Source: Vairimorpha necatrix
Taxonomy: Eukaryota
Assembly: GCA_036630325.1 (NCBI GenBank)
Contig: CP142735.1
Span: 682,001 to 746,000 of the forward strand
Reading direction: 5' to 3'
Length of the DNA stretch: 64,000 nucleotides
Part shown: positions 1 through 43,099 of the stretch, piece after piece
How the letters are laid out: every line of letters starts with the position of its first letter
How positions within the stretch are numbered: the first letter of the stretch is position 1
The notes under the pieces: generated by a model
Seen by the model: the letters and a program-made list of their open reading frames with translations, nothing else
Database searches by the model: none
Told to the model about the DNA's origin: nothing
Made by a program: the position numbers and the translations under genes

Positions 1-1260
1 AAAAGTACAAGTGCAAGTGCAAAGTAAGTTCAATATGTAATGCCGCAATTAAAGTGTGTGGCGAACATAATCATTCTATAGATGCCGCTAAAGTGGAATC
101 CGATAAAAGATATGCATAATATTCGAGCCTTTGGAAACCCCTCAAAAGAAGCGCTACAATCAATTATATCAGAATGTTTATCACTATACAACCAAGCTGC
201 AGCCTCGAAATTGACACGACGAGCGTAGCCTTTGTTATATTCGTCAAATTGCTAAAGCAGGCAGCGTGCTTCTAAATTCGAGCAGGAAATTGCGTTCACA
301 GACAAATTTAAAGAAACGGCCAGAGGTGAACCCTTTCTGTTGTATGATTCTGGGGCAGATGGAAAAGGAATTTTAATTTTTTCGTCGATTACAATTTACA
401 GATTTTGCAAGATAGTCAACAATAGTGGTAGATGGCACGTTTAAAACCGTTCCATTATTTTTTCTTCAATTGTACACCTTCACGGCCTAAAACAAAGTGC
501 TTCAGTCCCCTTGGTCTTCGCTTTATTCTCAACTAAATTAGAGCAAACCTATTTCAGATTTCTTAGCACTTTGAAAGATTTTGAACCATCCTTAAATCCG
601 CAATCGAAAACTGTAGATTTTTAAAAAGCATGCTGAATGCTATACAGTACAGTTTCCAGGAGCCATGTAAAAGAATAATTTTTTCATTTCTCCCAATGCA
701 TTTTTCGAACCGTTCAAAATCATGGATTCAAACTACTGTACGATAAAGATCCAGAATTTGCACTGCGAATAGGAATGCTAGCAGCAATCGCATTTGTACC
801 ATCCGATTTAGTTGTTGACGTTTTTGAAGAATAAGGTGACGGAATACTGATCATCAGAGCTTTAGCCGTCTAAGACTATTTTGAAGATACTTGTATTGAC
901 CGTAAAAACCGAAGACAGCGTCGAACACCAAATTTTCATTAGAAATATGGAATATGTACACTATAACAATAGATGATCTTTCTAGGCCCAACAACCGGCC
1001 AAAGGTTGGCATTGAGGGGGGGGGGGTTCGAGTCGCAAACAGGTGGCACTCACCTGAATATTTGGAAGTTTATTAATTGCTTAAAAAAGAAACAAGCTCT
1101 AAATGAGGTTCAATTTGAACAATTTTTTGCTGGATATAATGCTTATCTTTATAAAAAAAAAGTATCGCGATTGCATAACGAGAATTCTAAATATCATTCT
1201 CAATTTTAACCGAGAAAATTTTAGGATATATTGGTTCTGTGCCCATGATCTATCATTTTA
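1..1260 (+). mobile_element. Degenerate Mutator/MULE transposase remnant (window starts inside it)
   Basis: Broken frames give MULE-type motifs: DGTFKTVP..F.QLYT.HG (~430-490), FFHFSQCIFR (~680-710), DYFEDT (~873), and W..Y....R.NN...GWH (~950-1010). Many stops and frameshifts. Confidence 0.75.
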
Positions 1261-1733
1261 AAATAAATTTTTATTTTTTTTTACATTTTTTTATATATTT
1301 ATAAACATTTTAATACTTTTATATTTTTTAATTCATTTAGTGATATAAATATATTAATATTAACTGCTATATTGCATAATATATATGATTTCTACATAAA
1401 AATTTTTTAAATTAAATATATATAATGCATATCTTCTTCATAATGTAAGCAAAGAAGATATAGTTCATTCTGGTCTACCATGTGGAAAGAAAGAGCAATC
1501 CGAAGACTGCAATAGTTTCGAGGAGTATCTTCTAGAATACATTCCTGATGGCCAAGGTTAGATCACTTTCCCAACCTTGCAGGAATTTGTAGATATTATT
1601 AAATATTTACCAAATTGAAAGGCTGCAAGCTGTGATGGAATCTTCAATTTCTTTATTAAGAAGTGTGAAGCTCTACACCCATTTCATTACAAGATTGTTA
1701 AGGAAGTATGCCTGATGGGAAAGAACCCAAAGC

Positions 1734-2525
1734 TTGGTTCTACAAGGGATTCCTTATTTAATCCCCAAAGGTACCCCCCCCCCCACTAGTGGTAACGACT
1801 TCAGGCCAATTACCTGTATGTTGAACCCCTACAAGCTTTCAACGAAATGCACTACGAAAGTAATGCAGCTAATTGTAGAAAGTAGAGGGCTACTAGCAGT
1901 TAACCAACTAGGGACAGTTAGACAAGTCCAAGGAACAAAAGAACAAGCTATGATTAATTTAGCAGTCAATAAGGAGCATGGAAACAGGCTGAAGACCTCG
2001 TGGATAGATGTAAAGAAAGCCTACGATTCCGTAGACTATTCTTATCTATTAACGTGTATCAGCAAGTTAAATCTCCCTCAATGGATAAGTAAATTCTTAG
2101 AAGTCACGGTTAAAAGGTGGCACATTGAGATAAAATCAGGATCGGAAACGATACTGAATAAGAAGATTGAAAGAGGCATATTACAAGGTGATTCTTTGTC
2201 GCCGCTTTTGTTTGTACTATGTATGGACCCGTTGAGCAGGAAACTGAATTCAACTTACCATAAAGTAGGAATACAGACTCACGAAAGTGTTTATGTAACA
2301 AACCATCTTCTATTTATTGATGATCTTAAGCTCCTCGCAGAGAACGATGACGTTTTAAAACTAATGAAAGAGGAAACTAAAAAGTTTTTCTCTGCTGTAG
2401 GTTTAGAAATGAAAAGAAGTAAGTCTGCAACTAACTGTAGTGATTGTAGTGAAGATGCAGTAGTACTAGAAGGGCATCAAGGATACAAATACCTTGGAAT
2501 AACAGAAGATGCCTCTAGTGTATAA
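1734..2525 (+). pseudogene. Non-LTR reverse transcriptase core fragment
   Basis: ORF track: QGDSLSP and FIDD motifs, ending in a premature stop. Confidence 0.85.
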
Positions 2526-3384
2526 AAAGAGAGACTTTTGAAAAGTGAAAAATGAGATCTTAAAGAGGGTTGAAAAACTGTGCAAGACTCAATTAAATGG
2601 TAAGAATATGATTCGAGCTATAAACGAGCATGCAATATCAGTAATAAACTATCATGTAGGATTAATAAAATTAGAACCAATAGATTTCAAAAGTCTCGAT
2701 TTTGATATCCGACAGGTACTTATTAAGTAACAGGCCCATCTACAGTCTGCCTGCAAGGAAAGACTATACCTTCCTAGATCCGAAATGGGTAGAGGCCTCA
2801 TAAGTATCGAAGATAGAAGCGAATGTATGCCTCTGAATATTTATAAAACGTTAGATGGGTCTAGAAATAGCTCACTAAGACGGGCAGCGATACTTAAAGT
2901 AGAGGCGGAGAGCAAATCCCACTTGTTTACAATAAACGAGTATCTAAGGATTAGGTATAGCTTTGTAGGAGAGATAACCCAGAAGATGCTAATAGAATCC
3001 CTAAAAGAGACGCTTTACAACAAAATTAACATAAGGACAAACCATGGAAAGTTGTTTAAAGCTAGGGACAATGATTTAGTAAGCATTAGGGACTCTTCCT
3101 ACCTGGCTGGTTAAAGGAAACAATCAGGCTAGATCCGAAGCAATTTACTGCTTCCTACAGGATAGAAATATCTTCTGTGGACAAGAGGGACAATGTCCCC
3201 ATTGTTGATCTCATAGGAAGACCGTGGATCATTTAGCCACCAAGTGTGATCGAATGTTGGGTTTTGATTATATGAAAAGACACAACGAGGTAGTTATATG
3301 CATTCATCTCTTACTATGTGTATTTATTTATCATAATTGGGGATCAAAAATATAAGAATATATAACATCCCCCCTCCAGGACGG

Positions 3385-4398
3385 TTAGTCTCCTACATCA
3401 CCATTAACCCCAAGCAGATTTTTCAAGTCATAATGTCTCTTTTTAACATATCGCCCATTAGATAGCTTCACAACATACGAGTCCCCAGGGCATATCGCCA
3501 TTATAATACCTTCGTCTAAAAACCTTCCCTTTTCATATTTATTACATCCTTTGATGTTTTCTTTCTTAGCTATCCTTACTCGTTGTCCTTCAATAAACCG
3601 CTCTCTATATCTTCTAACAAATCTTTTACTGTAGTCTCCTTCTGGTCCATTTAATATAATCACTTTCCTCGTATTGTCTTTTACCGCTTCATTGGGAGTA
3701 CTTCTTATACCTTCATGGTTACTATTATTATAAATTTTAAAGCTATCCATCACTATGTCTTCAAAACTCGCCGTCTTTTTACTCATTTTCAATATTAGCT
3801 CTCTCAGCGTTCCTATAACTCTTTTTACTCTACAATTGCTTCTATGAGACTCGACACTCACCTTATTATGGATAATATCCAATTTTCTACACAAATCCTT
3901 AAAGTCAACATTATCAAATTCCTTCCCATTATCCGTTATTATTTCCTTCGGCCTCCTGCCATTTCTACATAAGTTCTCAATAAACTGGGCCACGGAGGAT
4001 CTCTTCTTATCGTATAATACACATCCCCACGCTATCCTCGTATGGTAATCTATCGCAACTAATACATATTTGCCCTTATCTCTAAAATCAATTAAATCTA
4101 ACGCTACTTTTTCTAAATACCTGCTTGTAGCAACAAAATCACATCCTCCAGACTTTTTCCTATTGTAAATTTGACACTCCTCGCACCTTTTTATCATTTT
4201 CCCTATATCTTCTTTTATTCCTGGCCAATAATAATCAAACTTCATGGCATAATACATGCTTCCTAGTCCTCTGTGTCCATGCTCTTCATGATAACGTCTC
4301 ATAAGCTCATCTCTTTCTTTTATTTTAGGAATCAATGCTTTCCTCCCCGAATCAAAATTCCAGTATTCTTTACCGTCTATTGTCTCGACGTGCTTCAA
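3385..4398 (-). pseudogene. Gypsy A integrase region
   Basis: H..HGH...C..C zinc finger, VALDLI and ITDNGKEF motifs. Confidence 0.85.
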
Positions 4399-5760
4399 CC
4401 ATTTACCTTCAATTTGACGCTCACTTCTTTTTTTATAATTTCTTTTCTCGGATCAACCTCCTCGTGTATCCTACTCAAAGCATCCGCCACGACCATATGT
4501 TCTGGTTTCCTGTAATCTATTTCAAAGTCAAATTTTTGGATCTTTTCAATCCATCGATTAATTCTATTATTATTAAAACACGGCTTTCTTCTTATTTCCG
4601 CCAATGCTTTGTGATCCGTTTCTACTTTAAATTTTCATCCTCTTAACTCATATTTAAATTTCTTTATTCCCCAATATATGGCATACATTTCCTTTTCACT
4701 TATACCATATCTAGTTTACGTCGGGGTGAATTTCTTCGATGCCCATTGTACTGGCACCCACTCTTCTTTATCATTCTTCTGCATGAGTACTGCGCCCATT
4801 CCTATATTGCTCGCGTCAGTTCTTAATAAAAATTCCTTGTCATAGTTTACAATTTTCAACTTACTCATACTTCTTAACGTTTCCTTCATATTTTCGAACT
4901 CTTTATTTAAGTCATCAGTCCAATTCAATACTTTACTTTTACCTTTCAAACTTTCAGTCATATATAATGTCTTCTCTCATAATTCTTTATAAATCCTTGA
5001 AACCATTCACTCAGTCCTAAAATTCTTCTTATGTCAGACACATTCTGCGGCGTTGGGAACTCTAGTGCTTCGTTTTTCTTGATTTCAGACGGCATCATAT
5101 CATCCCCGTTTAGTGTAACTCCCAATAACTTGACTTCCTTTTGGCAATACTGAATTTTCTTTGAATTTATCCGCATATTATTCCGTTCTAACAATTTCAT
5201 CGCTTCTACAAATAATTTATCATGTTCTTTTCTAGTCTTTGCATGAATCACTATATCATCCATGTATACTTCTATTTTACCACCCAAATGTTTTTCAAAA
5301 ATTTTATTCATAATTCTCTGCATGATCTGAGGTGAGTTTTTAAACCCCATGACCATACTATTCCATTCATATACTATCTTATCATGCTCAAATGCAGTCT
5401 TATGCTTGTCTTGCTCTTCTATTTCGATTCCATAAAAAGCCTCCTTAAGGTCTATAACACTGAAAAACTTCGACCCTTGCGTGTTCCTTATGATATCCCT
5501 AATGTTCACTAATTTATAAGGGTCTTTCTCCACTAAATCATTTAATGCTATGAGATTGCTAACCAGTCTTATATTTCCATCTGGCTTAATTAAAGCTTTA
5601 ATCGGATTTCTCCACTCCGACGTCGATCTTCTTATGACATTCCTTGTCTCTAACCTCTGAATATATTTTCTCAGCTCTTCTTTATGCGCTTGTGGCACCT
5701 GCTGACCTTTCCTTACAACTTTCTTACCTTCTTCAGTTCTGATTCTGCATTTTTCAATAT
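4395..5760 (-). pseudogene. Gypsy A RT/RNase H region (frameshifted)
   Basis: ORFs 4958-5698 (IDLKEAF, MGFKNSP, YMDD), 4716-4961 (TDAS) and 4395-4604. Confidence 0.85.
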
Positions 5761-5836
5761 CTTATTTTCTCTTCTTCGTTGTCTATAACGTTCCTAAACC
5801 TCTTTCTCATGTCTTCTAATGTTAGACCGTTCTTTT

Positions 5837-6398
5837 CTACCTCATCATAACATCTTTTATTTCTTGTCTTCCATTCTTGTTTCTTTTGTCTTTAGCATCC
5901 CATGTGTTCCTATAAGTCCTTTCACCACAGCTACTGCTACCTTCTTCTTTAATACTCTCACATTCGTCTTTATTCTTAACATTTCTATATCTATAATAAC
6001 ACATCTGACTCTTATGTCCCATTCTTGAACAATTATAACATCTCATTGTTCTTCTCTTCTCAAATATTCTTTCCTCTCTACTAATATTTCTAATCTCCTC
6101 TGCCACCATCTTTGTGATCTCCTCAATCATCCGTAATCTCATATCCTTTTCCTCCTGTCCTTTAACCAATTCCTCTAATTTGGTTTCCATAACTTTCCAA
6201 TGATCTCCAATCTTAATATTTTTAACCATAAATTCTTTCAACTCATCATTCAAAAATCAAAAATCTCCTTCTTTACATTTTTCAAAATCATAATCAGACA
6301 ATACTAATCCATAAACAATCCTCTTAAACTCTTCTAATAACCTTCTGGCCTCTTGACCACAGCCAACACTTGTTAACTCACGACTCGATATCGCCCCA
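5837..6398 (-). pseudogene. Gypsy A short gag-like ORF with CCHC knuckle
   Basis: GQEARRLLEEFKRIVY N-terminal block, shared with element B, then CYNCSRMGHKSQMC. Confidence 0.75.
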
Positions 6399-7359
6399 TG
6401 TATTTATTTATCATAATTGGGGATCAAAAATATAAGAATATATAACACTATGTATTAAATATGGGGTTAAGAAGACAAAGAAAACACGTGGACACTCAGT
6501 ACAAGAGATCGTGGAAAATGTTGTGCAGAAATAAGAGTAGATACGAGAATATCCTCTAATATAAAGTTGACCCATAATAAGCCTGATATTCTTGTGTTTG
6601 ACAAGAAAAAGAAAGAAATTTTAATAGTTGAAGTTGGTATAACCCACCAGGATCGAATTACTATATTGAGAATGAAAAACTAAGAAAATATGACCTTTTT
6701 GCAAACGAACTGGGACTAATAAATAAATCCTGGACAAGAATAGTTCCTTATGTAATGACATGGGATGGAGTGGTAACCAAATATCACAGAAAGTACTTCA
6801 TTTTGCTTGAAATCTAACCCTACTTAAAGCGCTTATCCAGTCTATTGTGATGAAAAAGAATCTAGAATCCATCTCTTTGGAACGACGACGAGGATACGAT
6901 TAGGAGAATGCAGGAGAGGAAGAATTGCCTAGAGCTGTAAGCGCACTAACGAATATGCCGACTGTTAAAGAAGCGGCGTCGGCAAAGGGGAATGAAGCTA
7001 AAAATTTGGAGTTGAAAAACATAAATAATTCCACAGAAACCAAAGTCTGTTAAGAGCTGAATTCGTGAGCGATACCGGGGAAGCTGGTATATAAATATCT
7101 TATCTTAATGATAAATTAACTCAATAAATCTTTTATCTATAAATAACCCCTTAAAATTTTTCGGTGAATTCTCCTAGAACCATGTTACTTAATGAGGCAT
7201 TATATATTTCAAGAATGGTCTTTCAAAACTTCCCATTGTTGTTTGTTTATTTACAAAAAACAAACAAACATGTAAAACTATAAACACCAAACAGCCCAAA
7301 AGGGCATGGTTAGCAGGAGGTGGATACAAACGCAAAAAATAATAACAGCAGTATTCTTG

Positions 7360-9378: not shown

Positions 9379-10306
9379 ATTTATTTATAAACTCTTATTT
9401 TAAATTAATTATAAAAATAATATGTTCTAGACATCTGTATACACCATCTTTATTTTCTTTTTTTTTTATCTACATTTAAGAATCTTCGTATTTTGGTCTT
9501 GTAACATGTTTTACGTATAAAAAAATACGTGTGAAAAAAAGAAAAAATTATAAAACTTTCTTATTAAGCACACAATATTATTATAATAAACAACGGGTTT
9601 AATTTAATTAAGATGAAAACTGCCATAAAAAATAGTTGCCTTCCCGTCCTATTGCGATAAACTAAGTGAAACATAATGACGAATATTTTTTCATTTTTGG
9701 GGTGTACTTAGGCAATTATATTTATCTTTGTTTATTTGTAAATATATTGTAAATGATTTAGACTTATGATCCAATATATAATTATTTGTTCTACTTTTTT
9801 CAATTCCAAAAGTTTATATCTAAAATCAAGCTTATATATTCTTTGTTGTTCATCAAAAAGAGGCTTTCCGTCATCCAAACTCATTATAGAATTCAGTAAA
9901 TGATCAAATCAATCATTTGGACGGTACATAGCATTTTTAATACAATTCAAAGTAAGCAATATTTTCTTTGACAGGAAGGGATTCCAGTCGTCACAAATTT
10001 TAATTTTGTTAAGAATATTTAAATAAAATTCTTGAGGCTTTAGGTATCTCTAAAACTGATATGGATATGGAATTACAAACTTCAAAGAAAGTAACTGTAA
10101 TCCATTTTTAGTCTTAGAATATTCTATTAAATATAAACAGGAATCAATAAAATATTCTTGATAGAGATAATCTAATATCATAATGGTTTTACAAAAGCTA
10201 TTAATCAAAAATGTTGCATCTTCTATATAATGTGTTTATTTTCCATAATGAGGGGTAAAAATAATAAGGATATATAACATCCCCCCTCCAAGACGGTAGT
10301 CTCATA

Positions 10307-12588
10307 CTAGAACTCATTAATCCCAAGCAGACCTTTTAAATCATAATGCCGCTTTTTCACGATCCTACCATTTTCCAAACTAACTAAGTACGAGTCACCT
10401 CCGCAAACTTCCTTGATAACACCATATCCTAAAAACCTTCCTTTCTCATACTTACTACAACCCGATAAGTTCTCTTTCTTCGCTACCCTAACTCTCTGAC
10501 CTTTATAGAATTTCTCTCTTTTGCGAGCCACAAACCTCCTACTATAAAATCCTTCAGGTCCATTCTCGATCATAACATGGCCCGTTTCGTCTCTTGAGGC
10601 CTCAAACGGTGTACATCTCAACCCTTCATGATAGCTGTTATTATAACGCCATATACATCTATTAACCTTGGCTTAAAAATCCACAGCATCATCTTTCAAT
10701 ATTCCTTCTCTTATGGTTCCTATTACCCTTTCCACTCTTCCATTACTTCTATGACTTTCTACGCTTACTTTCCTATGTAATACATTTTCCTCTGAACACC
10801 AATTCCTCATATATTCATTACTAAATTCTTTACCGTTGTCAGTAATTATTTCTACCGGTTTCATTCCTAATCCACACAACTGTTTTAAAAATCCTACAAC
10901 CGAGCTTCCGCGTTTGTCCTCTATAACTTTTCCCCAAACGATCCTAGTATAATAATCAATCACGACCAACACATATTTCCCTAAATCCCTAAACTCAATC
11001 AAATCCAAAGCAACCTTTTCCAAATAAAATCTTGAACTAACAAAATCACAACCACCACTCTTTTTCCTATTATATATTTGGCAAACTTCACACTTCTTTA
11101 AAACATCCTCGATATCCTTCTTCATACCCGGCCAATAAAATTCAAACTTCATTGCATAGTACACTGATCCTAAACTTCTATGTCCCAAATTTTCATGAGC
11201 ATTGACAATTAAACCTTCACGCAATTCTTTCTTTGGAATCTCCGCTTCTCTACCAGAGTCAAATACCCAAATTTCCTTCCCATCAACAACTTTAACATGC
11301 TTGTCCCATTTACCCTGTGCCTGTTTAATACTTCTCTCCTTATTCATTAGCGTTTTCTCATTTTCATGTACCCTACTCAGTGCATCTGCTACAACCATGG
11401 TACTAGGCTCTCTATATTCAATGCTAAAGTCGAACTCTTGAATCTTTTCAATCCACCTGTTAATTCTATTATTGTTAAATGCTGGTTTATTTCTAATCTC
11501 GATCAATGCCTTATGATCAGTTTCTACTCTAAATCTTCTTCCGCGTAGTTCATATTCAAACTTTTTAATTCCCCAAAAGACTGCATACATCTCCTTCTCA
11601 CTGATTCCATATCTCGTTTCCGTAGGCGTAAACTTTTTCGATGCCCACTGTACTGGTACCCAATTACCTTGATCATCTTCCTGCATTAAAACAGCACCCA
11701 TTCCAACATTACTCGCATCCGTGCGTAACAAAAATTCCTTATTATAATTAACAATTGCTAAACCTTTTAAATCCCTAATCACTTCCCTTAAACTAATATA
11801 TTCTTTTTCCATTTCTTCTGTCCATTTCCAATTACTTCCTCGTCCTTTAAGAGAATCCGTCAACGCCAATGTACGTTTTGCATAATTATCAATATGATTT
11901 CTTAACCATCCAGCCAGCCCAAGAAACTTCCTAACATCTGATACACACTCCGGTTTGGGAAATTCTAACGCTTCATTTTGCTTTATTTCAGATGGCAGTA
12001 TCTCCTTGCCATTAACGGTTACTCCTAACAACATCACCTCTCGTTTACATAATTGAACCTTAGCCAAATTAATTTTCATACTATTCTCCTCTAATATATC
12101 TACAGCCTCTTTCAACAATTTGTCGTGACCCTCTCTTGTCTTACTATGAATCACAATATCGTCCACATAAATTTCGATTCCCTTACCAATAAATTTTTCA
12201 AAAATCCCATTCATTATTCTTTGTAATATCTGCGGTGAGTTTTTAAACCCCATGACCATCGAATTCCACTCGTATACCTTTTTATTAAACTCAAAAGCCG
12301 TCTTAAACCTATCCTTCTCTTCAATCTCAATACTATAAAACCCCTCCTTTAGATCTATCACGGTAAAAAATTCAGATCCCTGTGTACTTCTACAACATCT
12401 CTTATCCTAGTTAACTCATAAGGATCCTTCTCTACAATGTCATTAAGAGCAATTAAATTACTTACTAATCTTATATCACCATTCGGTTTCTCAATCGCTC
12501 TAATGGGATTTCTCCAGTCAGATGTCGACCTTCTAATTATCTTTCTTCTTTCCAAACTATTAATATAATCTTCCGTCTTCTTCAACAA
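10307..12588 (-). pseudogene. Gypsy B pol (RT-RNase H-integrase), interrupted
   Basis: ORFs 12358-12588, 10673-12361 (562 aa) and 10307-10621. Confidence 0.9.
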
Positions 12589-12596
12589 AGCCTGAG

Positions 12597-13361
12597 CTAT
12601 AGCCTGCCCTTTTTTAACAACTTTCTTGCCTTCTTGAGTCTTGATAATACATTTTTCAACCTTACAAAAACTAATATCTTCATCCTCTCTCCTCCTACCC
12701 GTGAAATAATCTCCTCTAAATACGCGATGCCTCTTACATCCCTTCTCAACAGAACTCTCTTATTATTGTCCCTTTTGCTATAATCTTGTATATCCCCTAA
12801 ATTTTTCTTCTTACGTTTCCCACCATCAACATTATAATAATCACATTTGTCCAAATTGGAATCGTCATCACATTTACCCTCTAAGTCTAATTGCACTTAC
12901 ATTTACCAACATAATTAAAACTACTTTTATTTCTTCTGTCTTCAGAATCTCGCCTCATTCCCCTACAAAATCTAACACTATGGCTTAACTTCCCACAATT
13001 GTAGCAAAGTATATTCTTTTTATTTTCCTCACGAGACAACTTATTCTTCTCCTCAAATTTAGCCCATAACGCTAGGGACAACTCTTCAAATTCTTTTTTT
13101 CTCACTTGTTCCTTTTCCTCCTGAATAGCTAGCAACTCTAATTTTTCCTCAATTTCCTTCCAACTACCCTCTTGCGAGATCCTCTCAACAATAAAATTTC
13201 TCAATAAAATAGAACCTCTCCTAAAAATTTCTAATTTAAATCCACACTCATCAATTTTCTCTAAAAACAACTCATAAACAATCCTTTTAACCTCTTTTAA
13301 TAATATTCTAGCCTCTTGGCCACGGTCCTCCTTTGTAGACCCATTTTCTGGTATCGCCCCA
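12597..13361 (-). pseudogene. Gypsy B short gag-like region with Zn knuckle and charged linker
   Basis: ORFs 12887-13270 and 12597-12896; the open frame extends upstream to the PBS (GAIPENGSTKEDRGQEAR...). Confidence 0.75.
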
Positions 13362-13415
13362 TGTGTTTATTTTCCATAATGAGGGGTAAAAATAATGAGG
13401 ATATATAACATATAA

Positions 13416-16163: not shown

Positions 16164-17529
16164 TACCTAAAGCTTACCTTAGCCAAAAATTAGTGCACTT
16201 TGGATACGAATATTTCCCATTTCAAACATGCGATGGTGCGGGGACCAAATATCAAATAAAAGATTGGTGAGCTTAAAACCAAGATCTTTTGAGGCATACA
16301 TCTAATCTATTGTACCTAAAAAGGCCCAGAGTCTATCTATATAAATTAAAGACGAATATACAAACAGAAAAATCCACAGTGGAATATGTGAACTGAACTA
16401 TAGTTGCACTATATGAGGAAATAGAGTGTGATAAGTGGTGCATTAGAGGGACCAACTATTATATCATGAAAAGTACTACATAATTATTTATAGAACTAAA
16501 ATTGTAAAGAGCATATGCCCATAAACTAGATCATAAACATGGACGTCTAAACTTAAATATATCAATATAACTATTAATTTGTTGAAAGAAACATCACATC
16601 TATAAGTCTCTTAAAAAAATCCAATGCATAGTTCCTCTGTTGTTCAACTTATGTAAAATTATAAAAATTTTCTTTAGAAAATTTCAAATGTGAAGATCAA
16701 AATAGTGTGTGTTAAAACGAAAACATAGTTTATATGATACAAACCATTTAAAGAAATAATATGGCACCAACGTTAAACATTGACATCTGTAGCACTCTCG
16801 AATCAGCCTCAAATTTGAAGGCTTTACTTGACTTGGGCCCGCCGTTTTATTTTTTCATTATCTAGTAAGATTTTAAATTGTAAAAACGTCGTTCTACGAC
16901 TGATTTTTATCTTCTCTTTTATTGGAAAAGTAAAACAATACTTAAAATGACGAAAAGATGCATCCACGCATCTTTGTGCCGTTAATTTTTTTTGTTATAA
17001 AAATCGAAATTTAAAAAAAAAGAGGAACAAGAAAGAGAATGATTACTATTCATTTTTATCTCAAAATAATAAATCATTTTTTTATGTACAAGTTTGAATT
17101 TAAGATTATGTTATCGTCACCTAAATATGTCATATGAACTATTTTGACATAATTTATAGATTGTTTTCTTGGACTAATAAAGAATTTAAATGTAAAATAT
17201 GTGTTTATGGTTTCAAATAGACAAATATTACTTTTGAACAGGCAGCTTATTACAAAAGAACACTTTTCATAAACATCTTTCTAGATTAAAGGAACCTAAA
17301 CGATAAATATATGCTTAATTTAATATACAAACAGAAGCTTACAGATGACTTTATAAAGCCTAAATATGTCAATCAGACATGGGCTTTATACTTTCAAAGA
17401 GGTGTATTCGAGAGCCCAATATGCGAATTTAAAAAGGAACTTTGGGAACTGACAGAAGATATTGTGAGTGCATCTTATAAAAAAAATGAGTGAATAAGAT
17501 ATTATACTCGAATAAATTATACAACGGTG

Positions 17530-17938
17530 GATAGTCTAGTATAAGATTCTCTTTTTTAAAAAAGTTTAAACAATACATCTAAAATATGAATAATAGATGT
17601 TGTATGAATTGACGCATCAGATACCAAAATGAGATATAAATTCTTGCATTAAAGTAGTAATAAATAACTGTAAAAGATTTAATTTTGAAATACACTTTAG
17701 GGAGAAGGTTTTTTTGTTATATTTTCTTTATGATTTTATAGAGGTCTGGAAATTTTAAGTCGCTATTTAAACGACATAATATAGAAATTTATCAACTTCG
17801 ATATTCCCTTTATGATGTTTAACTATTTTATACAGATACTTCTTGGCCTCTAGATTATTAATAAAATCGTATAGATAATTGACAATTTCTGGTTTAAAAT
17901 GTTCAATATGTTTGTCGACATCTTTTTCAATTTCTGAC
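17530..17938 (-). pseudogene. Decayed paralogue of the Noc4-like gene at 43601-44092
   Basis: Colinear nucleotide similarity to ~43670-44090, e.g. TCTGGTTTAAAAT...TCTTTTTCAATTTCTGAC and ATTTTATAGA.GTCTGGAAA. Multiple indels; the start codon is lost at the SINE junction. Confidence 0.85.
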
Positions 17939-18692
17939 GGGGCCCTAGCTCAGCAGTTAAAGCAGAATTGCGATTGGGCATGGTTAAGTTTGAATCATTT
18001 AGACACCTAAAGGCTTCTACTTTCTATGACATTCTTTGAATTTAAAAAATGCACTGTACTCATTAAATTGATCTAAAGAAACTTATTCATTTAGACCTAC
18101 GGAATTAGTATCTACTTTAATAATCTTCCAAAATGTACAAAACAATACCATCACTGTGATAACTTATCAATACAAAATAGTATCTGCTGTACACGGCCTA
18201 GTTTGAGCTCATAGCAAGGCCCCACAAGGGGTAATCTCTGAGCCAACAAGCGACTAAGTGGACTTGAGAAATAAAGGGTCTCTAGATTCATTCTGCTTAA
18301 TTTTTACGTTTTCCGAACTGGTGAGCGACTAGTTGTCAACGCAGTGCAATAAAAACCAGGCTTTATATGTTTGTGAAGGAGGCATATGTGAGATACAGAT
18401 GATTTTAGGGACCTTTGAACTAGTAAGAAGATGTCTACCCTTGGGGTATTTAAACCATCCCCTCCTGATCGTATCTACTGTGGGGTTACTCTGCACGCAT
18501 TTTAGGTAAATATAAGAAAATACTTGCCTGTGCCAAAGTCCAATGGATACTGGAGAGCTTGCTGCTCTGACACGATGTATTGAGAGGGGGTTGGTGATTA
18601 ATAATACCACAGGTCAATGGATGGGGATAACACCTACAACAGTCTGTCCCCATGGAAGGATAATCCTCTTCTCGTATTTGCAGAGAAAAAAA
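17939..18692 (+). mobile_element. Old diverged copy (C) of the tRNA-headed SINE-like family
   Basis: Head GGGGCCCTAGCTCAG..GTTTGAATC; body blocks shared with 59846-60644 (GTCAACGCAG, GATACAGATGATT.TAGGGACCTTTGA, GCCAAAGTCCAATGGATAC); ends TTGCAGAG-A-run. No TSD seen. Confidence 0.8.
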
Positions 18693-21650: not shown

Positions 21651-23516
21651 ATGGAAAGACAAATTAAAACACTGGAATTTGAAAATCTTTATCTTGATGT
21701 ACCAAAATTCGGTCCTAATGGACATGTATCTTACACTAGAATTTTAAGATGTTTATCTGGGAAAATTGAATCTGGGAAACTTACAGCTGTAATTGGTTCT
21801 AGTGGTTGTGGTAAAACTCATTTTCTTAGAATGCTTGTTGGTGATATCAGTGAAAAATCTAAAACATTTGGTAAGATATTATACAATGGCAAAGAAAGAG
21901 AACCAGAAGAATGGAAAATGAAGTTTTCGTATGTTCCTCAGGATGATATATTTTATCCTGACTTGTCGATTAATAATCATATGAAATATTATATGTCACT
22001 TTTTGAAGACAAAAGCAGTGAATTTTACGAACATAAAATCGACAAGATACTTGAAAGATGCTCTATATTGCATCAAAAAAATAATTTCTTTGGGGCACTT
22101 TCTGGAGGTGAACGTAAAAGAGCTTTGATCGCAATATCCATGATTAATGATCCAGAAATTTTAATTTTAGATGAACCTACGACTGGGATAGATTCAAATA
22201 CAGCATCAGAAATCATCCAGACACTTAAAAAGTATGCACAGGATTATAATTGTATGGTTATATCTGCAATACATCAACCTGGTCCTGGTCTTTTTAGCTA
22301 CTTTGATGACTTAATTGCATTAGTGAAATTGGGAGTATTTTATATTGGACCATATAAGCAATTAGAATCTTTTTTGATCGGAAATGGGATCTCTATGGAA
22401 TCTGACTTATCTTTGCCAGAATTATTGTTTGTTATTTTGGTTGATAATTCCAAGTTTCCCGAAGCCAAAAAATATAAATCGAATGTTAAGAAAATTATTG
22501 AAAAAAACGAGGATAAATGTAAAAAATATAATAATAATAGAATATGTAATAATTACAAGACTCTTGATTTTAAACACAAATTCGCTGATAGCTGGAAGGT
22601 GATAAAATACTCCTTTAATGCTACGTATAATGTAAACAAATTATCGGTTAAAATAGTTTTAATGGTATTCATATCAATTATAGCAATTTTATTTGAACCA
22701 ATTTTTCATTTCGTCGAATCTTATCCATTTAATCATTTAAAATTTTATGATGAATTGAAACTGTGTTCTTATGGTCAAATATTGAGTTTTAGTTTTGCTG
22801 TAGTTAGTCATTTATATAGTATAACTCATTCTATTTGGTCATTTTATGCTTACACTGGAGTTTGGTCCCACAATCGATGTTTTGTAATTGAATATTTAAA
22901 TGGTAGATACACGTATGGTACATATTTTATGGCGACATTCTATTACTGTCTAATTAGAAATTTTATATTCTTCTCTGTTAAGTTCTGTTTATATCTCTTA
23001 TTTTTTAGAAATTTTTTATTTCATCCAATAGTGTTTTTAGTTTTTATTATTTCTACTATTTTAAATATTTTTTTGTTTACTTGCATGTCTATTATCTCCG
23101 AATATAATATTGTTTTTAGCTTAATATATTTTTTTATAATACAATCACCACTAGTTACATGCGATACAGCGGTGTTTAAGCTAAACCATGATGACATACT
23201 AATGTATGTATTATCAATCATCCCAATATTAAATTTAAGACTCTTTTTAAAGATGAGATGTTTTGGACTAGCAGAAAAATTTGCAGATAAGACTGCGATT
23301 CTTGAATTTTTGAATAAAACATGCGTTAAAGAAATTATCCATTGTTCGTATGATGAAGGATTAGAAAATACAATATTTTACAACAAATTTGGCAAGTCGG
23401 CGGATTTTATTACTGGAATTAGTATATTTGGATCTTGTTTATTATTGATTGGTGGTGCAACAATACTTTACATAGTCGATAAGATTCCTAACATGAGATT
23501 TAAATTAACAAAATAA
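21651..23516 (+). CDS. ABCG (White-type) half-transporter, NBD-TMD order
   Basis: Walker A GSSGCGKT, Q-loop YVPQDD, signature LSGGE, Walker B ILILDEPT, H-loop IHQP, hydrophobic C-terminal half; CCC motif before the ATG. Confidence 0.95.
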   Translation: MERQIKTLEFENLYLDVPKFGPNGHVSYTRILRCLSGKIESGKLTAVIGSSGCGKTHFLRMLVGDISEKSKTFGKILYNGKEREPEEWKMKFSYVPQDDIFYPDLSINNHMKYYMSLFEDKSSEFYEHKIDKILERCSILHQKNNFFGALSGGERKRALIAISMINDPEILILDEPTTGIDSNTASEIIQTLKKYAQDYNCMVISAIHQPGPGLFSYFDDLIALVKLGVFYIGPYKQLESFLIGNGISMESDLSLPELLFVILVDNSKFPEAKKYKSNVKKIIEKNEDKCKKYNNNRICNNYKTLDFKHKFADSWKVIKYSFNATYNVNKLSVKIVLMVFISIIAILFEPIFHFVESYPFNHLKFYDELKLCSYGQILSFSFAVVSHLYSITHSIWSFYAYTGVWSHNRCFVIEYLNGRYTYGTYFMATFYYCLIRNFIFFSVKFCLYLLFFRNFLFHPIVFLVFIISTILNIFLFTCMSIISEYNIVFSLIYFFIIQSPLVTCDTAVFKLNHDDILMYVLSIIPILNLRLFLKMRCFGLAEKFADKTAILEFLNKTCVKEIIHCSYDEGLENTIFYNKFGKSADFITGISIFGSCLLLIGGATILYIVDKIPNMRFKLTK

Positions 23517-26752: not shown

Positions 26753-26789
26753 TTGATAAATAAAAGGATTTTTTTTTATCACCTTAAAA

Positions 26790-28087
26790 ATGATTCTTCC
26801 TCCCAGAAATGCTAGTGAATACAGTAATTTAAAATTAGTTTTACTAGGCAGGGACAATGAAGTTGTTTTAGAAAAGCAACAAAAAAAACGGTTGAAACAA
26901 AAAGCTGGTAATTACCTTCTTATAGATGGGGCGCTATATTTAAGGGACCGGGCTAATGGGAACCACCTCAAGGTTTTTCATAGTGAACAGCTTGAGGCCT
27001 TGGAAGTGGAATGTAGAGCTTTCCACCAGCTTCATCACGGGGGCGTTAACCGATTCGAAGCATCATGCAATAAGGTTTTTTTTAAAATTCCTAGGGACAT
27101 TATAAGAAAAATCGTTTCCGAATGCATCACATGTGTACAATCACAACCGTTAAAAAATAAAGAGCGCCAAGTACATATTACGGCCTCTAAACCGATGGAA
27201 CGAATTATGATCGATTTAATCGATATGACACGCTATAAAAGGTTTAACGATGGTTATTGTTGGATTTTAACAATAATAGATGTGTATTCTAAGTTTGCCT
27301 GGGCCTTTCCATTGAAAAGTAAAACAGGTGATGGGGTTACAAAAAACCTTAAATTTTTATTTTACAATATGACTGGTCCGCCCAAGGTCCCTTAAAGCGA
27401 AAATGAAAGGAATTTTGCAATTCTCATATAAATAACCTTTGTTCCGACCTTTTTATTATTCAAAAACATAGTAGGCCCCGTTTTCCACAATCAAACGGGC
27501 AAATAGAAAGGTTTGACCAAACTTTAACGCGAACAATACAAAAACATGTATTTGAAGAAAGTTTGTTTGCCGTTGACAATTCTAAAACTGAAGAAGAAAA
27601 GGTATGGCTGAAACATCTAAATAAAGTAGTCTACAACTACAATTTGGCCAAACATAGTGCGACAAAGCAGGTCCCGTTTAATTTATTCTTAAAAATACCA
27701 GGATTAAATTCTGTTTATATGCAAGATGAGAACGAGTCTATAGATGATAGCTTAAAAGAAATTGAAATGAATTCTTAGACAGTAAATAAAAGAGATTTGT
27801 CGAATAGTGTTTTTAAAGAGCAAACTGAAACTGGTTCAGTTGATAAAAATTACCTTGCAAGAGTGGATCGTCATTCATTGGTTCATATCTCAAAATATAC
27901 TTTTGAAATTGGTGACAAAGTCATTGTAGCTAAAGACTTTGATAATAATATCAAAACAAAAAAACTAAAATTATCTTCTTTTTTTAAAGAAGTTAAGATT
28001 ATAAAAATTCTCTTCAACAACAGAGTGAAATGTGAAACTGAAGAAGGAACTCAAATTTTCCCTATATCGGGGCTTAAAAAACTTTAA
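26790..28087 (+). pseudogene. Retroviral-type (rve) integrase/transposase of Ginger-like element 1, frameshifted
   Basis: H..HHGG...C..C zinc finger, MIDLID, IDVYSKFAWAFPL, PQSNGQIERF and YN..KHSAT motifs. Confidence 0.85.
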
Positions 28088-30057: not shown

Positions 30058-30550
30058 TTTTTATGTATTTAGATATATATTTTAACACAATTTAGAAAAA
30101 GTAATTGTATAATTTGTTTTATTCTTATGTAATACATATAATATAGTCAAATAAGAACTTATAAAAACTATTTTTTGTACTTTATAAATTATTGATTTTT
30201 TCCTCCTTTTTTTACGTTTTAGTTTTCCAAAAAATAGGATATTTTTAAAATTGGTATATATATTCATGGGGGACTAAAGTGGAAATTGGCCTAAGTTTTT
30301 TTTTGCTTTTTATTGGTAAAATTAAAATTTTAATTTAAAGGGTGTACAAATCTTTGAATGTCAATTTTTTCAACGCCTGTCAACAGTTTTGGCGTTGAAT
30401 TTTATAAAAATAAAAATTTGACATGTCAAAAAAAAAAAAAGTAGCTTAAGTTTGCTTATTTACCGTAATTTTTTAAAGTAAAAAAAAAATTATAATTTAA
30501 CTATAACTCCTTTTTTTTATATAAATAAAAAAATCATAATCAGCCCCAAA

Positions 30551-37861: not shown

Positions 37862-38839
37862 TTTACCAAAAAAAAATTAAATTATGAAAATTTTATAATA
37901 ACATTTTAAATGTTGCTCAAAATGTTTCGAAATATTGATAATTTTGGTATTTTGTAATAATTGTACAGTTTGGAGCGGATGCCACGGGTAAAAAATGCAA
38001 AAAAAAATCTCCTCAGTGAGGAGAGATTCAGAAAATAAGAACAAATAAATGTTCGTCTTTAATGGCTGCCAAAATTTTGTCTCGATTTTTTGAAAGGTAA
38101 ATTTTTGTTTTTTTATAATAATGGGAGGGAATAGTGAAAGAAGCAGAAAAATAAAATAAACAAAGCTTTTAGTACTTTATCCATTGCCAAGCAGCCTCAG
38201 ATCTCTAGCACTTATTTCGTTTATAGTAATCCCATTATTATCTTCTCTGCATAATTTTAATTAATTAAATTGTATATATCTTTTACAGGATAGACTTCTG
38301 CATCTAAACGTTCATACAGAGAATGTCTTCTTGTATTATCGTTGTTGTCCAAATAAGGTCTTATAAGGATTCTATCCCCTATTTGAAATTCTAAAAAATC
38401 ATTTTTCTACATACTTCTTTGTACTATTCTATCTGCAGGAATTTGTGTATGAATTCTAGCTGCATCATGATATCTTTCAATTAAAAAAAGTTTGTGTTAT
38501 TCGGAGCATACCTTTGTTGTGTTTATTCATTAATATTGCAATCTAGAACATCTGATAAACTTTATTTGGCATATTTTTCGTCCTCACATTCTTGTTCGTG
38601 ATTTTCTTACTTATCGAATCTAGAACCCCTGTGATTCTGGAGACGTCCATATTGTCCCTAATAGATCTATCAATTATTGGAGAGAATAATGTTTGATTTG
38701 TAGTAGAGTATCTTTAATTATTATACGACCAGGTAACTTCTTCTCTTACCTTGGTCCATTGAGCCTGTTTATTTAAGATATCTTAGGGGTCATAAAAATA
38801 GAAATTTATAAATATTCAACATCCCTCCTCTTTTATAGG

Positions 38840-41393
38840 CTAGTATACAAGTATTTTGAGTTGAGATGCATGTCTCTTAAGTCCTTTTCCCTTTGATAGT
38901 ACAATGTAAGGATTGTTTTCTAGCCGTTCTACAATCTGTCCTCTATCTTTAAACTTGGGCTGTCCTTTTGCCACTGCAAATTCATTCTTTATTATTACTT
39001 GATCGTTTTCCTTAAACTTTTCTTCAACCTCTTTATGCTCGTTTGCCTTATTAAACATTATAATTTCTTCGTACTGTTTCTCTTTTATTTTTGTTTCATT
39101 TTCCTTTTTACAAGCTTCATTTGGAGACATTCCTAGTTTTGAGTGGTTGATATTATTGTAAGCCTCTAACATTTTCAATAGTTTTGATTTTAGATTTAGA
39201 TGATCCTCCTGTTTGTAAATTCCTTCCTGGACGGTTCTGTTAAACCTTTCTACTCGTCCATTCGACTGATGATGAAAGGGTGTTGTATAATGTACTTTCA
39301 CTTTATTCTCTATGGCCCAGTTCTTTACTTTACTACTTTGATTCTCTTTTGATGAATCCATTATCAACTTTTTTATTGTTATTTGTTTGTTAATTTCCTT
39401 TATAAAATCTACAATCTTTTGACTATCTCTCGTGGTAATAACTTCCCCAAACCCTTTTCGACTAAAGTAATCAATTCCTGTTATTATATATTGTTTATTT
39501 ATGGGCCCTATAATGTCTATAGCTACTTTTTCTCCCGCAGAAAACGCTTTGACGAACAAAAAGGCTTCCCCCTTTTTGGGTTGTACATTTTACACCTTAT
39601 ACATTTTTTCAACTCTTCCTTCACTAATTTTTCCATATTAGGCCACGTATATTCCTTTTTAAGTTCTTCGGTTACTGTTTTTGCACCACGATATACTAAC
39701 TTCACATGTTTATCATTAATAAGTTCTCTTTTTATGTCATCAGTTAAGTCTTGAATTTCATTAACGACTTGCGCTTCCTTTTGGTATAGACGAGATATGT
39801 AGTCCACATGTGCCATCTCGACACCCCTTTTATATTTTACTGTGAAATTATATTGGCTAAGTCTGTCAAGCCATCTTTGTATTCGTTGAGAGCCTATTTC
39901 TCCTTTGTTCAACACATCCAAAGCTTTATGGTCCGTTATTACTTCAAATACATTCCCGTATAAGAAATATTTAAAATTCTTCATTCCCCACAACACTGCT
40001 AAGCATTCCTTTTCACTGATACTGTAGTTCATCTCGGCCGGTAAAAGTCTTCTTGAAGAATACGAAATAGGATAATTTGTTTCGCCTTGTTTTTGTGAGA
40101 GAATTGCACCAACTCTCGAATTGCACGCGTCTGTTTCTAGTATAAAAGGTTTTGTATAGTCAGGTTGGTATAATGCTATATTCGATTTTATGATGGTTTT
40201 AAGCTTATTGAAAGCCTTATCTTCATGTTCTCCCCAACTGAACTTTCTATCCTTTTTAAGTAAATCATACAAGCATCCTGCAATACTTGAACACCCGGGA
40301 ATAAATTTTCTGTAAAAATTGATAAAGCCAAGAAATTCTTGCAATGATCTAATATCATGCGGCGGTTTTATTTCATCAATACCTTGGCCAACTTCCCTTT
40401 TGGGTTTAATTTTATTGTATTCTATCGTATGTCCTAAAAATTCTACTGATTTCTTTTTATAAATAGTTTTATCTTCATTTAATTGTAAAGCATTCTTTTT
40501 TAATCGTTCCTTTATAATCCTAAAATTGTTATCATGGATTTCTTCAGTTGTTCCAAAAACTAAAATATCGTCAACATAAATGAAACACCTTTTCCCAATA
40601 TCATCTTGTAAAACATCATCCATAAACCGTTGAAATATGGCCGGCGAATTTTTAAAACCCATTGGCATTACATTCCATTCATATAAAAGATGCTTATGTC
40701 TAAAAGCTGTTTTGTGACTGTCATCTTCTGCTAATTCTATCTGAAAAAACCATCTTTTAAATCCAACTTAGAAAAATATTTTTGATCTTTTAAATTATGT
40801 AAAATTCTTTCTATGCTCGGAAGCGAGTATCTGTCCAAATCTACTAACTTATTGAGTGCAATCAAATTGGTTGTCACCCGAACCGATCCATCTGGCTTCA
40901 TAACTGGTCTAAGATTGTTTAACCACGTAGAACTGGATTTTCGAATATATTTTTTCTCTAATAACTTTTCTATTTCAGCATCTATGCCCACTTCCAATTT
41001 TTGTGGCAGTCCATACGTCCTTTCTACGACCTTTTCACCTGGTTTAGTTTTAATTTGACATATTCTGTTTTTTGGTTTTGCAAAAATTTTTATCAGCTCC
41101 TGTTTTCCGAATAATATTTTAAATTTGGCGACCCTAGGCAAAATAAAGAGTTCCGTTTTATATATCTTGTCCATATATTTAAATTCTAACTCTACTATCT
41201 CTTTTACTTGAAACTTTTCATCTAAACACGTAAAAAAGCTCAATGGCTTTTTCCTCCTTAATATCTGTAATTTTAATTCTCTAACTGCACAATGTGAAAT
41301 GAAATTATAACTAGAACCAGAATCGAAAATAACAGGCACCTTATTACTTTTAACATAGACGTAATTATTTTTATTTTCGTAAAATGCAGACTT
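38840..41393 (-). pseudogene. Gypsy C pol (PR-RT-RH-IN), frameshifted
   Basis: ORFs 40737-41339 (DSG protease plus RT start), 39523-40668 and 38840-39559. Confidence 0.9.
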
Positions 41394-42049
41394 TTATTCT
41401 AATGCCTCTTCAGTATTGGCTACTACCTCATGTACCTGCTTACTTGCACCAGTGTCTTTATTTCTATTCCGAAAATAGCAATTTGTAGAAACATGTCCTG
41501 GCTTTTTACATATGAAGCAGGTTAAGGTTTTTCTTGGAGTTTCTTTTAAGCTTAAGTTTTTGAAAGAAAAGGCCAAATCGGCTTCTTTCTTCATTTCTTT
41601 AATAGTTCCGTAGAATTCCTCATCCGTCTCATATTTAGTGGATAGAAACATTTTTATGAGTTTATATCGGGGTTTAATGCCGTTTTTTAAAATTTTCCTT
41701 CTATATTTTTCTTCAACATTTAAATCTTCACTCAATTTAATCGTTTCTTTTATAATACAGAAACAGACTCATTATCCTTTTGTTTCTTGGAGCACAGGTC
41801 CACTATAGAAATTTTCGTACAAAAATACTCTATCGCTGCTCTTCTGCAATGTTCATAGCTATAACTTGTTTTCCTTTTATTCCCAAATTTCTCTAGATGC
41901 CAGTCTAAAACGGTTTCGTCAAACCTACTGATAAAGTCATCCATTTTGTCTTCGTCAGTCTTTTTACTCCATCTACTAAGAGCCTCTGCTCTTTTTATCT
42001 CATGAGTTATGTTGTTTTTTGTTATTTTATTGTTCATATTCTCCACCAT
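41394..42049 (-). pseudogene. Gypsy C gag (frameshifted)
   Basis: ORFs 41750-42049 and 41394-41735; the ATG is formed by the last A of the LTR plus the TG of the PBS. Confidence 0.8.
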
Positions 42050-43099
42050 GTTTATTTAAGATATCTTAGGGGTCATAAAAATAGAAATTTATAAATATTC
42101 AACAGAGCCAAAATATTTTTTGTCCCGAGAGTAGATAAAATCATCCACTTTATTGTTTGATTGCGTCGTTCTATCTGTCCTTGTATCCATGTCCATCTAT
42201 CTCTCTTCCTAACGTGTCTTATTTCATATTTTTGACATAAATCGACGAGTACCTGATTTATAATTCTCCGCCGTTATCGGTATGAAGTATATAACAAGGA
42301 TTAAACGTTCTAAACAACATTTCCAAGCAATCCCTACACTGATACCTGTTTTGTTAAGCAGTGGTACCGTCCAACAATATTTGGTAAAAAAATCTCCTAT
42401 ATTCAATAACCATTAGAATCCTTCATTGAGTTCGTGATATAGCCGGAGATCAATCAAGTCTGCAACATATCTTTCCCATTGATACTTTGCTACAATTGGT
42501 CTAATAACTGGTCTAGTTACTAGATTTCTCTTTCATTGACATATATCACAGCTATTCAAAACTCACTCGATATCTTTTTGGGTTGCGTCGTAGACTTTTG
42601 TTTGTAATAATTAAAACAATCTGTCCTGTCCCGGATGCCCATTTGAGACGTAAATAAATTTTGAAGCGTTGCTCGTTTTGGGTTAAGGAATCGTAATGAT
42701 CTATATAGACATACTTTAAATCTCATCGTGAGCTTTGTGGTACCATTAATCACATCCCCAAAAGGGATAAACTTTATAGCTTTTTCTTGTAGCGTCTCTT
42801 TTTGTTTTTTCTACCAACCTCGTTGGAACAATACCAATCTTTAAGAAGACAACCCCTTCTTGTCTTTCATTGTTATTCAGTTTTATCTCCATGCCCTTCA
42901 AATTGCAGAAATTTTATATGCAAATCACAAATAAATACCAAAGTTTTTAAAAAATATTTTATTCTTCTCAAGTAAGCATTTGCCTGGCCTCTACTGCAAA
43001 CGGATTTTTTTTAATTTTTTGCCCTTCTAAAGTAAGCAACTTCCCCGGCGTCCGCTCCGAGCGGTGACAATAATTTACTATTATTTTTTTTTACCCTCC

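Follow-up and report, generated by a model that had tools for sequence, protein, structure and literature searches.

A 64,000-nucleotide stretch of Vairimorpha necatrix DNA (hereafter the window; GenBank assembly GCA_036630325.1, contig CP142735.1, positions 682,001 to 746,000 of the forward strand) carries a compact gypsy-type long terminal repeat (LTR) retrotransposon, element A, whose lineage keeps reverse transcriptase (RT), RNase H and integrase and, as we hold with high confidence, has lost its retropepsin throughout. In the textbook view, no LTR retroelement with an integrase can do without a Gag particle and an aspartic protease, and protease-less copies are helper-dependent deletion derivatives. 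Here, protease loss marks a deep, diversified clade with single open reading frames (ORFs) of ~1000 aa and a conserved mini-Gag, and the protease-less members are the most compact LTR elements among those examined (~3.05-3.13 kb, with LTRs of ~50 nt).

Element A is a 3129-bp LTR retrotransposon on the minus strand (window 3319-6447; the coordinates of its parts are collected in Table 1). Its LTRs are direct repeats of 49 nt with TG..CA ends and 0/49 mismatches, and a 5-bp target site duplication (TSD), CATAG, lies on both sides. The primer-binding site (PBS) begins with TGG and abuts the 5′ LTR, and the polypurine tract (PPT), GGAGGGGGGA, abuts the 3′ LTR. These are the identical LTRs, PBS, PPT and clean 5-bp TSD described in the original prediction on this DNA, and all of them lie where it had placed them. 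Comparison by eye of the PBS with the tRNA-Gly and tRNA-Met genes of the window gave no match. A Pfam scan of the element returned, in order, zf-CCHC (a weak match), RVT_1, RT_RNaseH_2, Integrase_H2C2 and rve, and neither a protease family nor a Gag family. Between the CCHC knuckle (CYNCSRMGHKSQMC) and the conserved CxIxT box that starts the RT region there are ~250 nt (83 codons), which include the pre-RT motif LEDMRKRFRNVID near 5817-5779, and ~125 codons precede the knuckle when counted from an ATG inside the LTR. Both lengths agree with what had been predicted, namely ~250 nt between knuckle and pre-RT linker without a protease and ~120 codons ahead of the knuckle. The domain order RT, RNase H, integrase, with the integrase last as in Ty3/gypsy, is present in element A and in 7/7 intact relatives; the homologues all look gypsy-like by their domain set and by source names (Tf2, 17.6, opus, gypsy), and the tree described below spans gathered homologues together with the window's own elements.

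Two companion elements lie in the same window, and their TSDs are likewise of 5 bp. Element B, a sister copy, has no protease and shares ~75% nucleotide identity with element A in its 5′ part. Element C is a protease-bearing compact relative that serves as an internal control, and it encodes, as had been claimed, a VIFDSG protease (RVP_2, E = 1.5e-6) and a Gag motif, KKQKDNESV.

Relatives were collected with the 577-aa RT-RNase H-integrase ORF of element B as the query, which returned 1152 proteins. Among the named matches, the best belonged to Nosema granulosis (80% identity), Vairimorpha necatrix, V. apis and Pseudoloma. A set of 16 relatives, each a single ORF of 934-1010 aa and many of them on contigs of 3.02-3.09 kb, has just 40-65% identity to the query ORF, a divergence that speaks for long persistence of the lineage. 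A hydrophobic-D[ST]G motif upstream of RT was seen in 0/16 fetched relatives (895-1010 aa), and a Pfam scan at E up to 1 found no protease or Gag family in 7/7 relatives scanned, just knuckle, RT, RNase H and integrase. We scored the protease with a custom hidden Markov model (HMM) built from 68 protease-bearing relatives, since a plain D[ST]G regular expression mislabels many protease-bearing rows. None of the 21 proteins of the group matched the HMM at E < 1, nor did any of the six frames of elements A and B, whereas element C, the control, scored 1.9e-19 to 2.5e-18. The profile searches, with Pfam and with the custom HMM, thus found no protease in A, in B or in 21/21 relatives.

The segment between knuckle and CxIxT box measures 51-96 aa in 19 proteins and consists to 39.5% of lysine, glutamate and arginine; its last ~35 residues form the ordinary pre-RT motif ..L...Y..VF......I.FC..EKC.I.T. 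A cryptic protease, divergent or non-aspartic, or a self-cleaving or ribosome-skipping motif might be housed in this linker or in the N-terminal region, as the linker is always present, its length class is kept and negative profiles are compatible with a new fold. Against this, the linker is K/E/R-rich, poorly conserved and predicted to be disordered, there is no invariant or near-invariant column between knuckle and pre-RT motif, an NPGP-type (2A-like) motif occurs in 0/21 proteins, and once the pre-RT motif is subtracted the ~20-60 residues that are left fall below any known protease fold. We consider such an activity very improbable.

A wider search compared a profile of the N-terminal 264 positions with 1.84 billion representative sequences and gave 3489 matches, 204 of them at E ≤ 1e-10. 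The best 150 of the 3489 matches comprise 144 new proteins, 15 of which contain both the knuckle and the RT anchor. In 14 of these 15 the gap spans 87-134 aa and has no D[ST]G; the fifteenth has a 224-aa gap with D[ST]G and matched the profile only in its RT-proximal part. All eight proteins that matched the protease HMM likewise aligned to the profile only at the RT-proximal end, none at the mini-Gag part, and no longer form with a mini-Gag was found among the best 150 of the 3489 matches. This bears on the possibility that A and B are private deletions, non-autonomous derivatives that lost internal parts of a longer element in which protease and full Gag were present. Copy A is indeed broken in many places and the identity of its 49-nt LTRs is no proof of youth, but the same architecture recurs in the intact relatives of 934-1010 aa, in a published 3127-bp consensus from another genus and in contigs of two sequencing runs, and the wider search turned up no longer mini-Gag form among its best 150 matches. 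We regard private deletion as extremely unlikely. The claim that element A represents a lineage and not a deletion copy is supported by element B and 21/21 database relatives, all without a protease, by one clade in two trees and by the contigs that span the junction.

For the phylogeny of the RT-RNase H-integrase part, 238 proteins were gathered; we kept the 116 that extend over no fewer than 150 aa ahead of the RT anchor and 560 aa beyond it, and with the pieces from A, B and C they made 119 rows. In the FastTree tree of these rows, 18 proteins form with A and B a protease-less clade of 20 rows (support 95). P0134 and P0146 are its sisters (support 99 for clade and pair together), and all of them belong to a compact group of 38 rows (support 100) that also takes in the 11 rows of the element C family and further compact elements with a protease. 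A quick IQ-TREE run on 48 chosen rows (the 38-row compact group minus the short RT piece of A, plus 11 outgroups) placed the protease-less label as one change (SH-aLRT, the Shimodaira-Hasegawa-like approximate likelihood ratio test, 93) and, rooted on the 11 outgroups, nested it within protease-bearing rows. Protease loss thus defines one clade in both trees, and its position within protease-bearing compact relatives fits a single loss on the sequence record. The sister pair has no CCHC knuckle and keeps a protease-homologous domain (HMM E = 1e-10 and 2e-11) with DRG or DLG in the place of the catalytic D[ST]G. These two sequences hint that the protease may already have been losing constraint before it was lost. 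A homologue search with the Gag-protease part of P0146 found only P0146 itself.

Several database entries around this clade are recorded here as observations in their own right. One 3′-truncated protease-less element was seen twice in metagenomes (contigs L001 and L002); it is nested in the RNase H part of a second retroelement, and the reading frame stays open over the insertion point. Three degenerate pieces (L003-L005) sit in one metagenome-assembled genome (MAG). The latter three and P0012, P0065 and P0128 are filed under the names of bacterial MAGs (Turicibacter, Clostridium, Bacteroidales) and are probably mis-binned microsporidian DNA.

The mini-Gag of the relatives has 125-150 aa before the knuckle. 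In a 17-sequence alignment the four C/H positions of the knuckle are invariant and several N-terminal positions nearly so. With hhalign, columns 23-80 of the mini-Gag aligned to columns 26-86 of the Gag of the element C family (probability 96%, E = 3.8e-9, 16% identity), and nothing beyond aligned. The AlphaFold2 (AF2) model of residues 1-272 of the relative P0017, made from the 17-row alignment (mean predicted local distance difference test score, pLDDT, of 69), has helices at 14-36, 43-49 and 52-62 and an unbroken helix at 69-137 with pLDDT mostly above 90, followed by the knuckle; it has no beta domain, and pLDDT falls below 50 at 161-193 and 210-238. Foldseek of this model against the PDB returned nothing at E < 1, a wide VIA search gave just coiled-coil matches to residues 79-139 (Z ≤ 6.6), and a second VIA look gave helical-hairpin proteins (Z ≤ 5.7) with capsids in 0/50 rows. 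This lack of fold matches concerns the whole model, with the bundle at 10-78 not taken separately, and is no evidence of a new fold.

As a control, the AF2 model of residues 1-259 of P0123, a Gag of the element C family (mean pLDDT 74.8), has nine short helices over residues 25-153, one long helix at 158-203 and then the knuckle. Its Foldseek matches were almost entirely retroelement capsids: the Arc capsid domain (E = 0.03, probability 0.94-0.98), dArc1, Copia, EIAV, HIV and PNMA2. VIA-align matched residues 91-184 to the C-terminal capsid domains of PEG10 and MOAP1 (Z 7.3-7.6), residues 26-93 to the N-lobe of human Arc (Z 6.8, root mean square deviation 2.4, 62 residues aligned) and the protein to the Ty3 capsid (Z 6.5). 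Such Z values are moderate, but capsids fill 50/50 rows. The Gag of the C family thus models as a two-lobed Arc/Ty3-like capsid. Because the hhalign match stops at the N-lobe, a single long helix follows it, and the C-family Gag models as two-lobed, the comparison indicates that the mini-Gag corresponds to just the N-lobe of a capsid, to which the long helix and the knuckle are joined.

The original prediction had described element A as apparently lacking a capsid-length Gag. This is supported for the knuckle-bearing subclade, in which just the first ~58 columns match the Gag of the protease-bearing relatives, with one long helix after them; an early protease-less branch, P0044/P0047, has no knuckle and still a long Gag. 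The Gag of this branch and of the sister pair aligns over 107 columns, the KQ..E motif region included. Because P0044/P0047 are protease-less yet have a long Gag, the sequences suggest that the protease was probably lost first and the second capsid half, the C-lobe, later.

The lineage also stands out by its compaction. In element sense the LTR of copy A reads TG..TATATAT..CCCC..ATG, with the ATG at LTR position 34 and four further codons after it, and the final base of the LTR completes a second ATG with the two bases that open the PBS. The N-termini of the relatives (MIQVSHMAT.., MIKYNHMAT.. or MAN..) match the translation from the LTR ATG, so the predicted ORF begins inside the LTR and the PBS falls within the predicted coding region. 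At the other end, 9/21 relatives terminate in ..GG(D/M)(V/L).., which means read-through of the PPT into the 3′ LTR. One relative has a 1002-aa ORF on a 3036-nt contig, leaving ~30 nt non-coding. As deduced from such sequences, an intact member is one polyprotein of ~1000 aa that fills nearly all of an element of ~3.05-3.13 kb. The 5′ LTRs of A (6399-6447), B (13362-13410) and C (42049-42104) share three features: a stretch rich in T and A, a CCCC shortly ahead of an ATG that is in frame, and, toward the 3′ end, AATAAA. CCCC and AATAAA in these ~50-nt LTRs may be a microsporidian-type core promoter and poly(A) signal, so that promoter, start codon and poly(A) signal would seem to be packed into ~50 nt.

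Copy A itself is dead. It has at least two frameshifts and at least three in-frame stops (at nt 189, 1730 and 1811 of the element, with more of them clustered at 609-684), and homologous proteins align to it in three frames; its mini-Gag is broken by one stop and by a frame break near the PBS, and its linker by several stops and frame changes. Because the LTRs are just 49 nt long, their identity is weak evidence of youth and uninformative on the age of the copy. Contigs from two public runs, belonging to two studies, span the junction between knuckle and RT of copy A with indels of 1-8 nt among the matches listed, and at the PBS most contigs of two runs differ from copy A by one base in length. 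In runs X1 and X2, contigs also run from flank to flank and omit 3134 nt, that is, element A and one TSD copy; these element-free contigs confirm the clean integration of element A. They are probably paralogous empty sites, because the flanks are high-depth repeats, with contig depth in two runs far above that of the element, and a LINE-like (long interspersed nuclear element) ORF adjoins them. This ORF (window 1716-3355, plus strand; RVT_1, 3.1e-25) marks a LINE-like repeat next to or within which element A lies.

An element of this type has been catalogued already, and the clade-wide loss of protease and capsid C-lobe appears undescribed in the searchable literature. Aalg retro L of Anncaliia algerae is given as complete, with 50-bp LTRs, an ORF at 32-3049 and a length of 3127 bp (Parisot et al. 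2014, PMC4202319, Supplementary Table S1), close to copy A with its 3129 bp, 49-nt LTRs and ATG at LTR position 34. The start of its consensus has CCC, an ATG, five codons and ATG GCG at the LTR end, which is the N-terminal pattern of the relatives when compared by reading and without an alignment, and a CCHC knuckle lies near nt 417-460, at the same place as here. It differs in coming from another genus and in being represented by a consensus only. The single polyprotein ORF in microsporidian hosts, as in the groups of Parisot et al. 2014, is shown by our relatives of 934-1010 aa. In its main text and supplement file 2, PMC4202319 remarks on this single ORF and not on a missing protease or a truncated Gag, and the word "protease" occurs 0 times. 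A 2008 paper paraphrases Xu et al. 2006 to the effect that "nearly all" Nosema bombycis (Nbr) elements have Gag, protease, RT, RNase H and integrase; because of this "nearly all", Xu et al. 2006, available to us through the paraphrase, may already have noted some protease-less element. Within the accessible parts of the literature searched, which included PMC4202319, PMC2474625, PMC2387174, PMC12471100 and PMC13174016, no protease-less, integrase-bearing LTR lineage was described.

Among known systems, the protease-bearing compact microsporidian gypsy elements (element C; P0123, P0125-P0133 and others) are nearest in the trees. Like element A they have tiny LTRs (56 nt), a 5-bp TSD, a single ORF from the LTR end, the same RT-RNase H-integrase part and a homologous N-terminal Gag; unlike it they are ~200-300 bp longer, with a ~95-aa retropepsin carrying D[ST]G and a two-lobed Arc/Ty3-like Gag. 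Ty3 of Saccharomyces cerevisiae and Tf1 of Schizosaccharomyces pombe, textbook Metaviridae, share the order LTR, PBS, Gag with CCHC, RT, RNase H, integrase, PPT, LTR and the 5-bp TSD, Tf1 also the single ORF, and some relatives bear the source name "Transposon Tf2-9 polyprotein". Ty3 and Tf1 are ~5 kb long, with LTRs of several hundred bp and a full capsid, and their transposition needs their own protease, whereas element A has 3.1 kb and no protease. Reverse-transcribing elements without an aspartic protease do exist, namely DIRS/Ngaro and those encoding the hepadnavirus P protein. DIRS/Ngaro elements use a tyrosine recombinase, bear split or inverted repeats and leave no TSD, whereas the LTRs of element A are direct, its integrase is of the DDE type and a TSD flanks it, and a DIRS/Ngaro identity was rejected on the presence of rve, Integrase_H2C2 and the 5-bp TSD. 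A non-autonomous identity of the LARD (large retrotransposon derivative) or TRIM (terminal-repeat retrotransposon in miniature) type was also rejected, since element A encodes RT, RNase H and integrase, all intact in relatives.

How such a lineage would replicate is a matter of graded likelihood. Taken as a whole, the account that explains the data best is that of a decayed compact gypsy lineage with lineage-wide protease loss that works as an uncleaved ribonucleoprotein (RNP), and we give this account an even chance of being right. The polyprotein would run from an N-lobe remnant through a predicted helix of ~70 residues, one CCHC knuckle and a disordered linker to RT, RNase H and the DDE integrase. 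The knuckle would bind the element's own RNA, the long helix would drive multimerisation, and the linker could act as a tether or as a cleavage site for a host protease. The RNP, uncleaved or cleaved by a host protease, would then perform tRNA-primed reverse transcription and DDE integration with a 5-bp TSD. By analogy, the logic proposed here is nearer to that of a LINE RNP than to that of a matured capsid. Proteins of the LINE-1 ORF1p type resemble the mini-Gag in having a long helix beside an RNA-binding module, a likeness that suggests an RNP more than a shell and for which we claim no homology; the mini-Gag differs in being fused to RT-RNase H-integrase and in coming with LTRs, a tRNA-type PBS and a DDE integrase. 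That replication proceeds without any retroelement protease is plausible to us while falling somewhat short of probable, and we put forward only tentatively that this is a minimal self-sufficient LTR retrotransposon, with neither a retroelement protease nor a closed capsid, that relies on a cis-acting RNP of the uncleaved mini-Gag-RT-RNase H-integrase polyprotein.

Several points weigh against the uncleaved-RNP account. All three copies in the window (A, B and C) are dead. The mini-Gag structure is a single AF2 model from 17 aligned rows, at the mean pLDDT given above. Clade support is moderate (95 as local SH-like support and 93 as SH-aLRT) and was obtained with fast, non-bootstrapped methods, the sister group consists of two sequences only, and 13 further "no protease" rows are scattered among protease-bearing families of the 119-row tree, at least some of them N-terminally truncated ORFs (e.g., P0083 beside P0086). 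The overlap of ORF and LTR in intact members is deduced from protein termini, contig sizes and a published table. Protease-bearing and protease-less relatives share the window and, by source names, the species V. necatrix, which would permit supply in trans, and the retained N-lobe homology could be useful for co-assembly with a helper capsid.

The last two points lead to the alternative that the lineage is a semi-autonomous parasite which brings its own RT-RNase H-integrase and a packaging handle (N-lobe plus knuckle) and obtains the protease, and perhaps the shell, from co-resident elements like C, with its polyprotein and RNA taken up into their particles. Both kinds do occur within one 64-kb window, V. 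necatrix has by source names protease-less (P0004, P0015, P0032) as well as protease-bearing members (P0121, P0122), the mini-Gag retains exactly the part homologous to the capsid N-lobe of the would-be helper family, and the protease-less and C families are mutual nearest relatives among the gathered sequences. The N-lobe likeness to the C family is remote, however, with the 16% identity found by hhalign; the protease-less clade is deeply diversified with intact ORFs, which is unusual, though possible, for helper-dependent elements; and the non-canonical DRG/DLG triplets of its nearest protease-bearing relatives are a hint that the enzyme had already ceased to be needed by the time it disappeared. 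We judge helper dependence of this kind to be rather unlikely.

Table 1. Parts of element A and its companion elements; positions are those of the window.
Feature	Position	Strand	Evidence or remark
5′ TSD copy, CATAG in element sense	6448..6452	-	
5′ LTR, 49 nt, TG..CA; TATATAT stretch, CCCC, in-frame ATG (6414-6412), AATAAA	6399..6447	-	
PBS, TGG start directly after the LTR, inside the predicted coding region	6384..6398	-	
Mini-Gag: capsid N-lobe-homologous segment, then predicted long-helix region	6041..6383	-	ORF 6253-5837; alignment with B and relatives; hhalign; AF2 of P0017
CCHC zinc knuckle, CYNCSRMGHKSQMC	5999..6040	-	
K/E/R-rich linker, 83 codons, at the usual place of the protease; last ~35 codons are the usual pre-RT motif	5750..5998	-	
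RT region (CxIxT box, SxWRNP, YMDD)	4958..5749	-	RVT_1 6.9e-32
RNase H and tether to integrase, two frames, in-frame stops	4395..4961	-	RT_RNaseH_2 5.4e-19
Integrase: H2C2 zinc finger, DDE core, C-terminal ..KKRHYDLK region	3385..4398	-	Integrase_H2C2 2.9e-15, rve 1.4e-10
PPT, GGAGGGGGGA	3368..3377	-	
3′ LTR, same sequence as the 5′ LTR	3319..3367	-	
3′ TSD copy	3314..3318	-	
Element B, sister copy of 3180 bp; LTRs of 49 nt that differ at 1 position; TSD TTATA	10231..13410	-	Same layout as A
Element C, protease-bearing compact relative, 3339 bp, 56-nt identical LTRs, TSD GGCTC	38766..42104	-	Internal control

Elsewhere in the window, two paralogous ABC-transporter ORFs lie 8.9 kb apart on the plus strand (21651-23516 and 30482-32407; 621 and 641 aa) with 77-79% identity over two compared 300-nt stretches, and a 33-nt tandem repeat, present ten times (53193-53661), lies inside an 810-aa ORF without a Pfam match (51414-53846, plus strand). 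Transposon debris includes a Merlin-type transposase fragment (35291-35815, plus strand; DDE_Tnp_IS1595, 7.9e-14) and a stray integrase-core fragment (26760-27395, plus strand; rve, 7.8e-5). Outside A, B and C there are dispersed repeats that are 75-83% identical (17400-17938 versus 43686-44090 and 18532-18612 versus 60472-60552).

If the self-sufficient RNP reading is true, LTR retrotransposition would have no strict need of a protease or of capsid maturation, an element of ~3.05 kb could be ~99% one ORF, and the DRG/DLG sister lineage would preserve a stage at which the protease was becoming expendable but had not yet been lost. If autonomous, these elements would define the minimal protein set for LTR retrotransposition and would be a natural link between retroelements that build capsids and those that work as RNPs. 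Should they instead rely on their protease-bearing sister family, they would be long-lived, coding "hyperparasites" of another retrotransposon. The lineage is also relevant to the influence of genome compaction in microsporidia on selfish elements, and its natural intact copies make the system testable.

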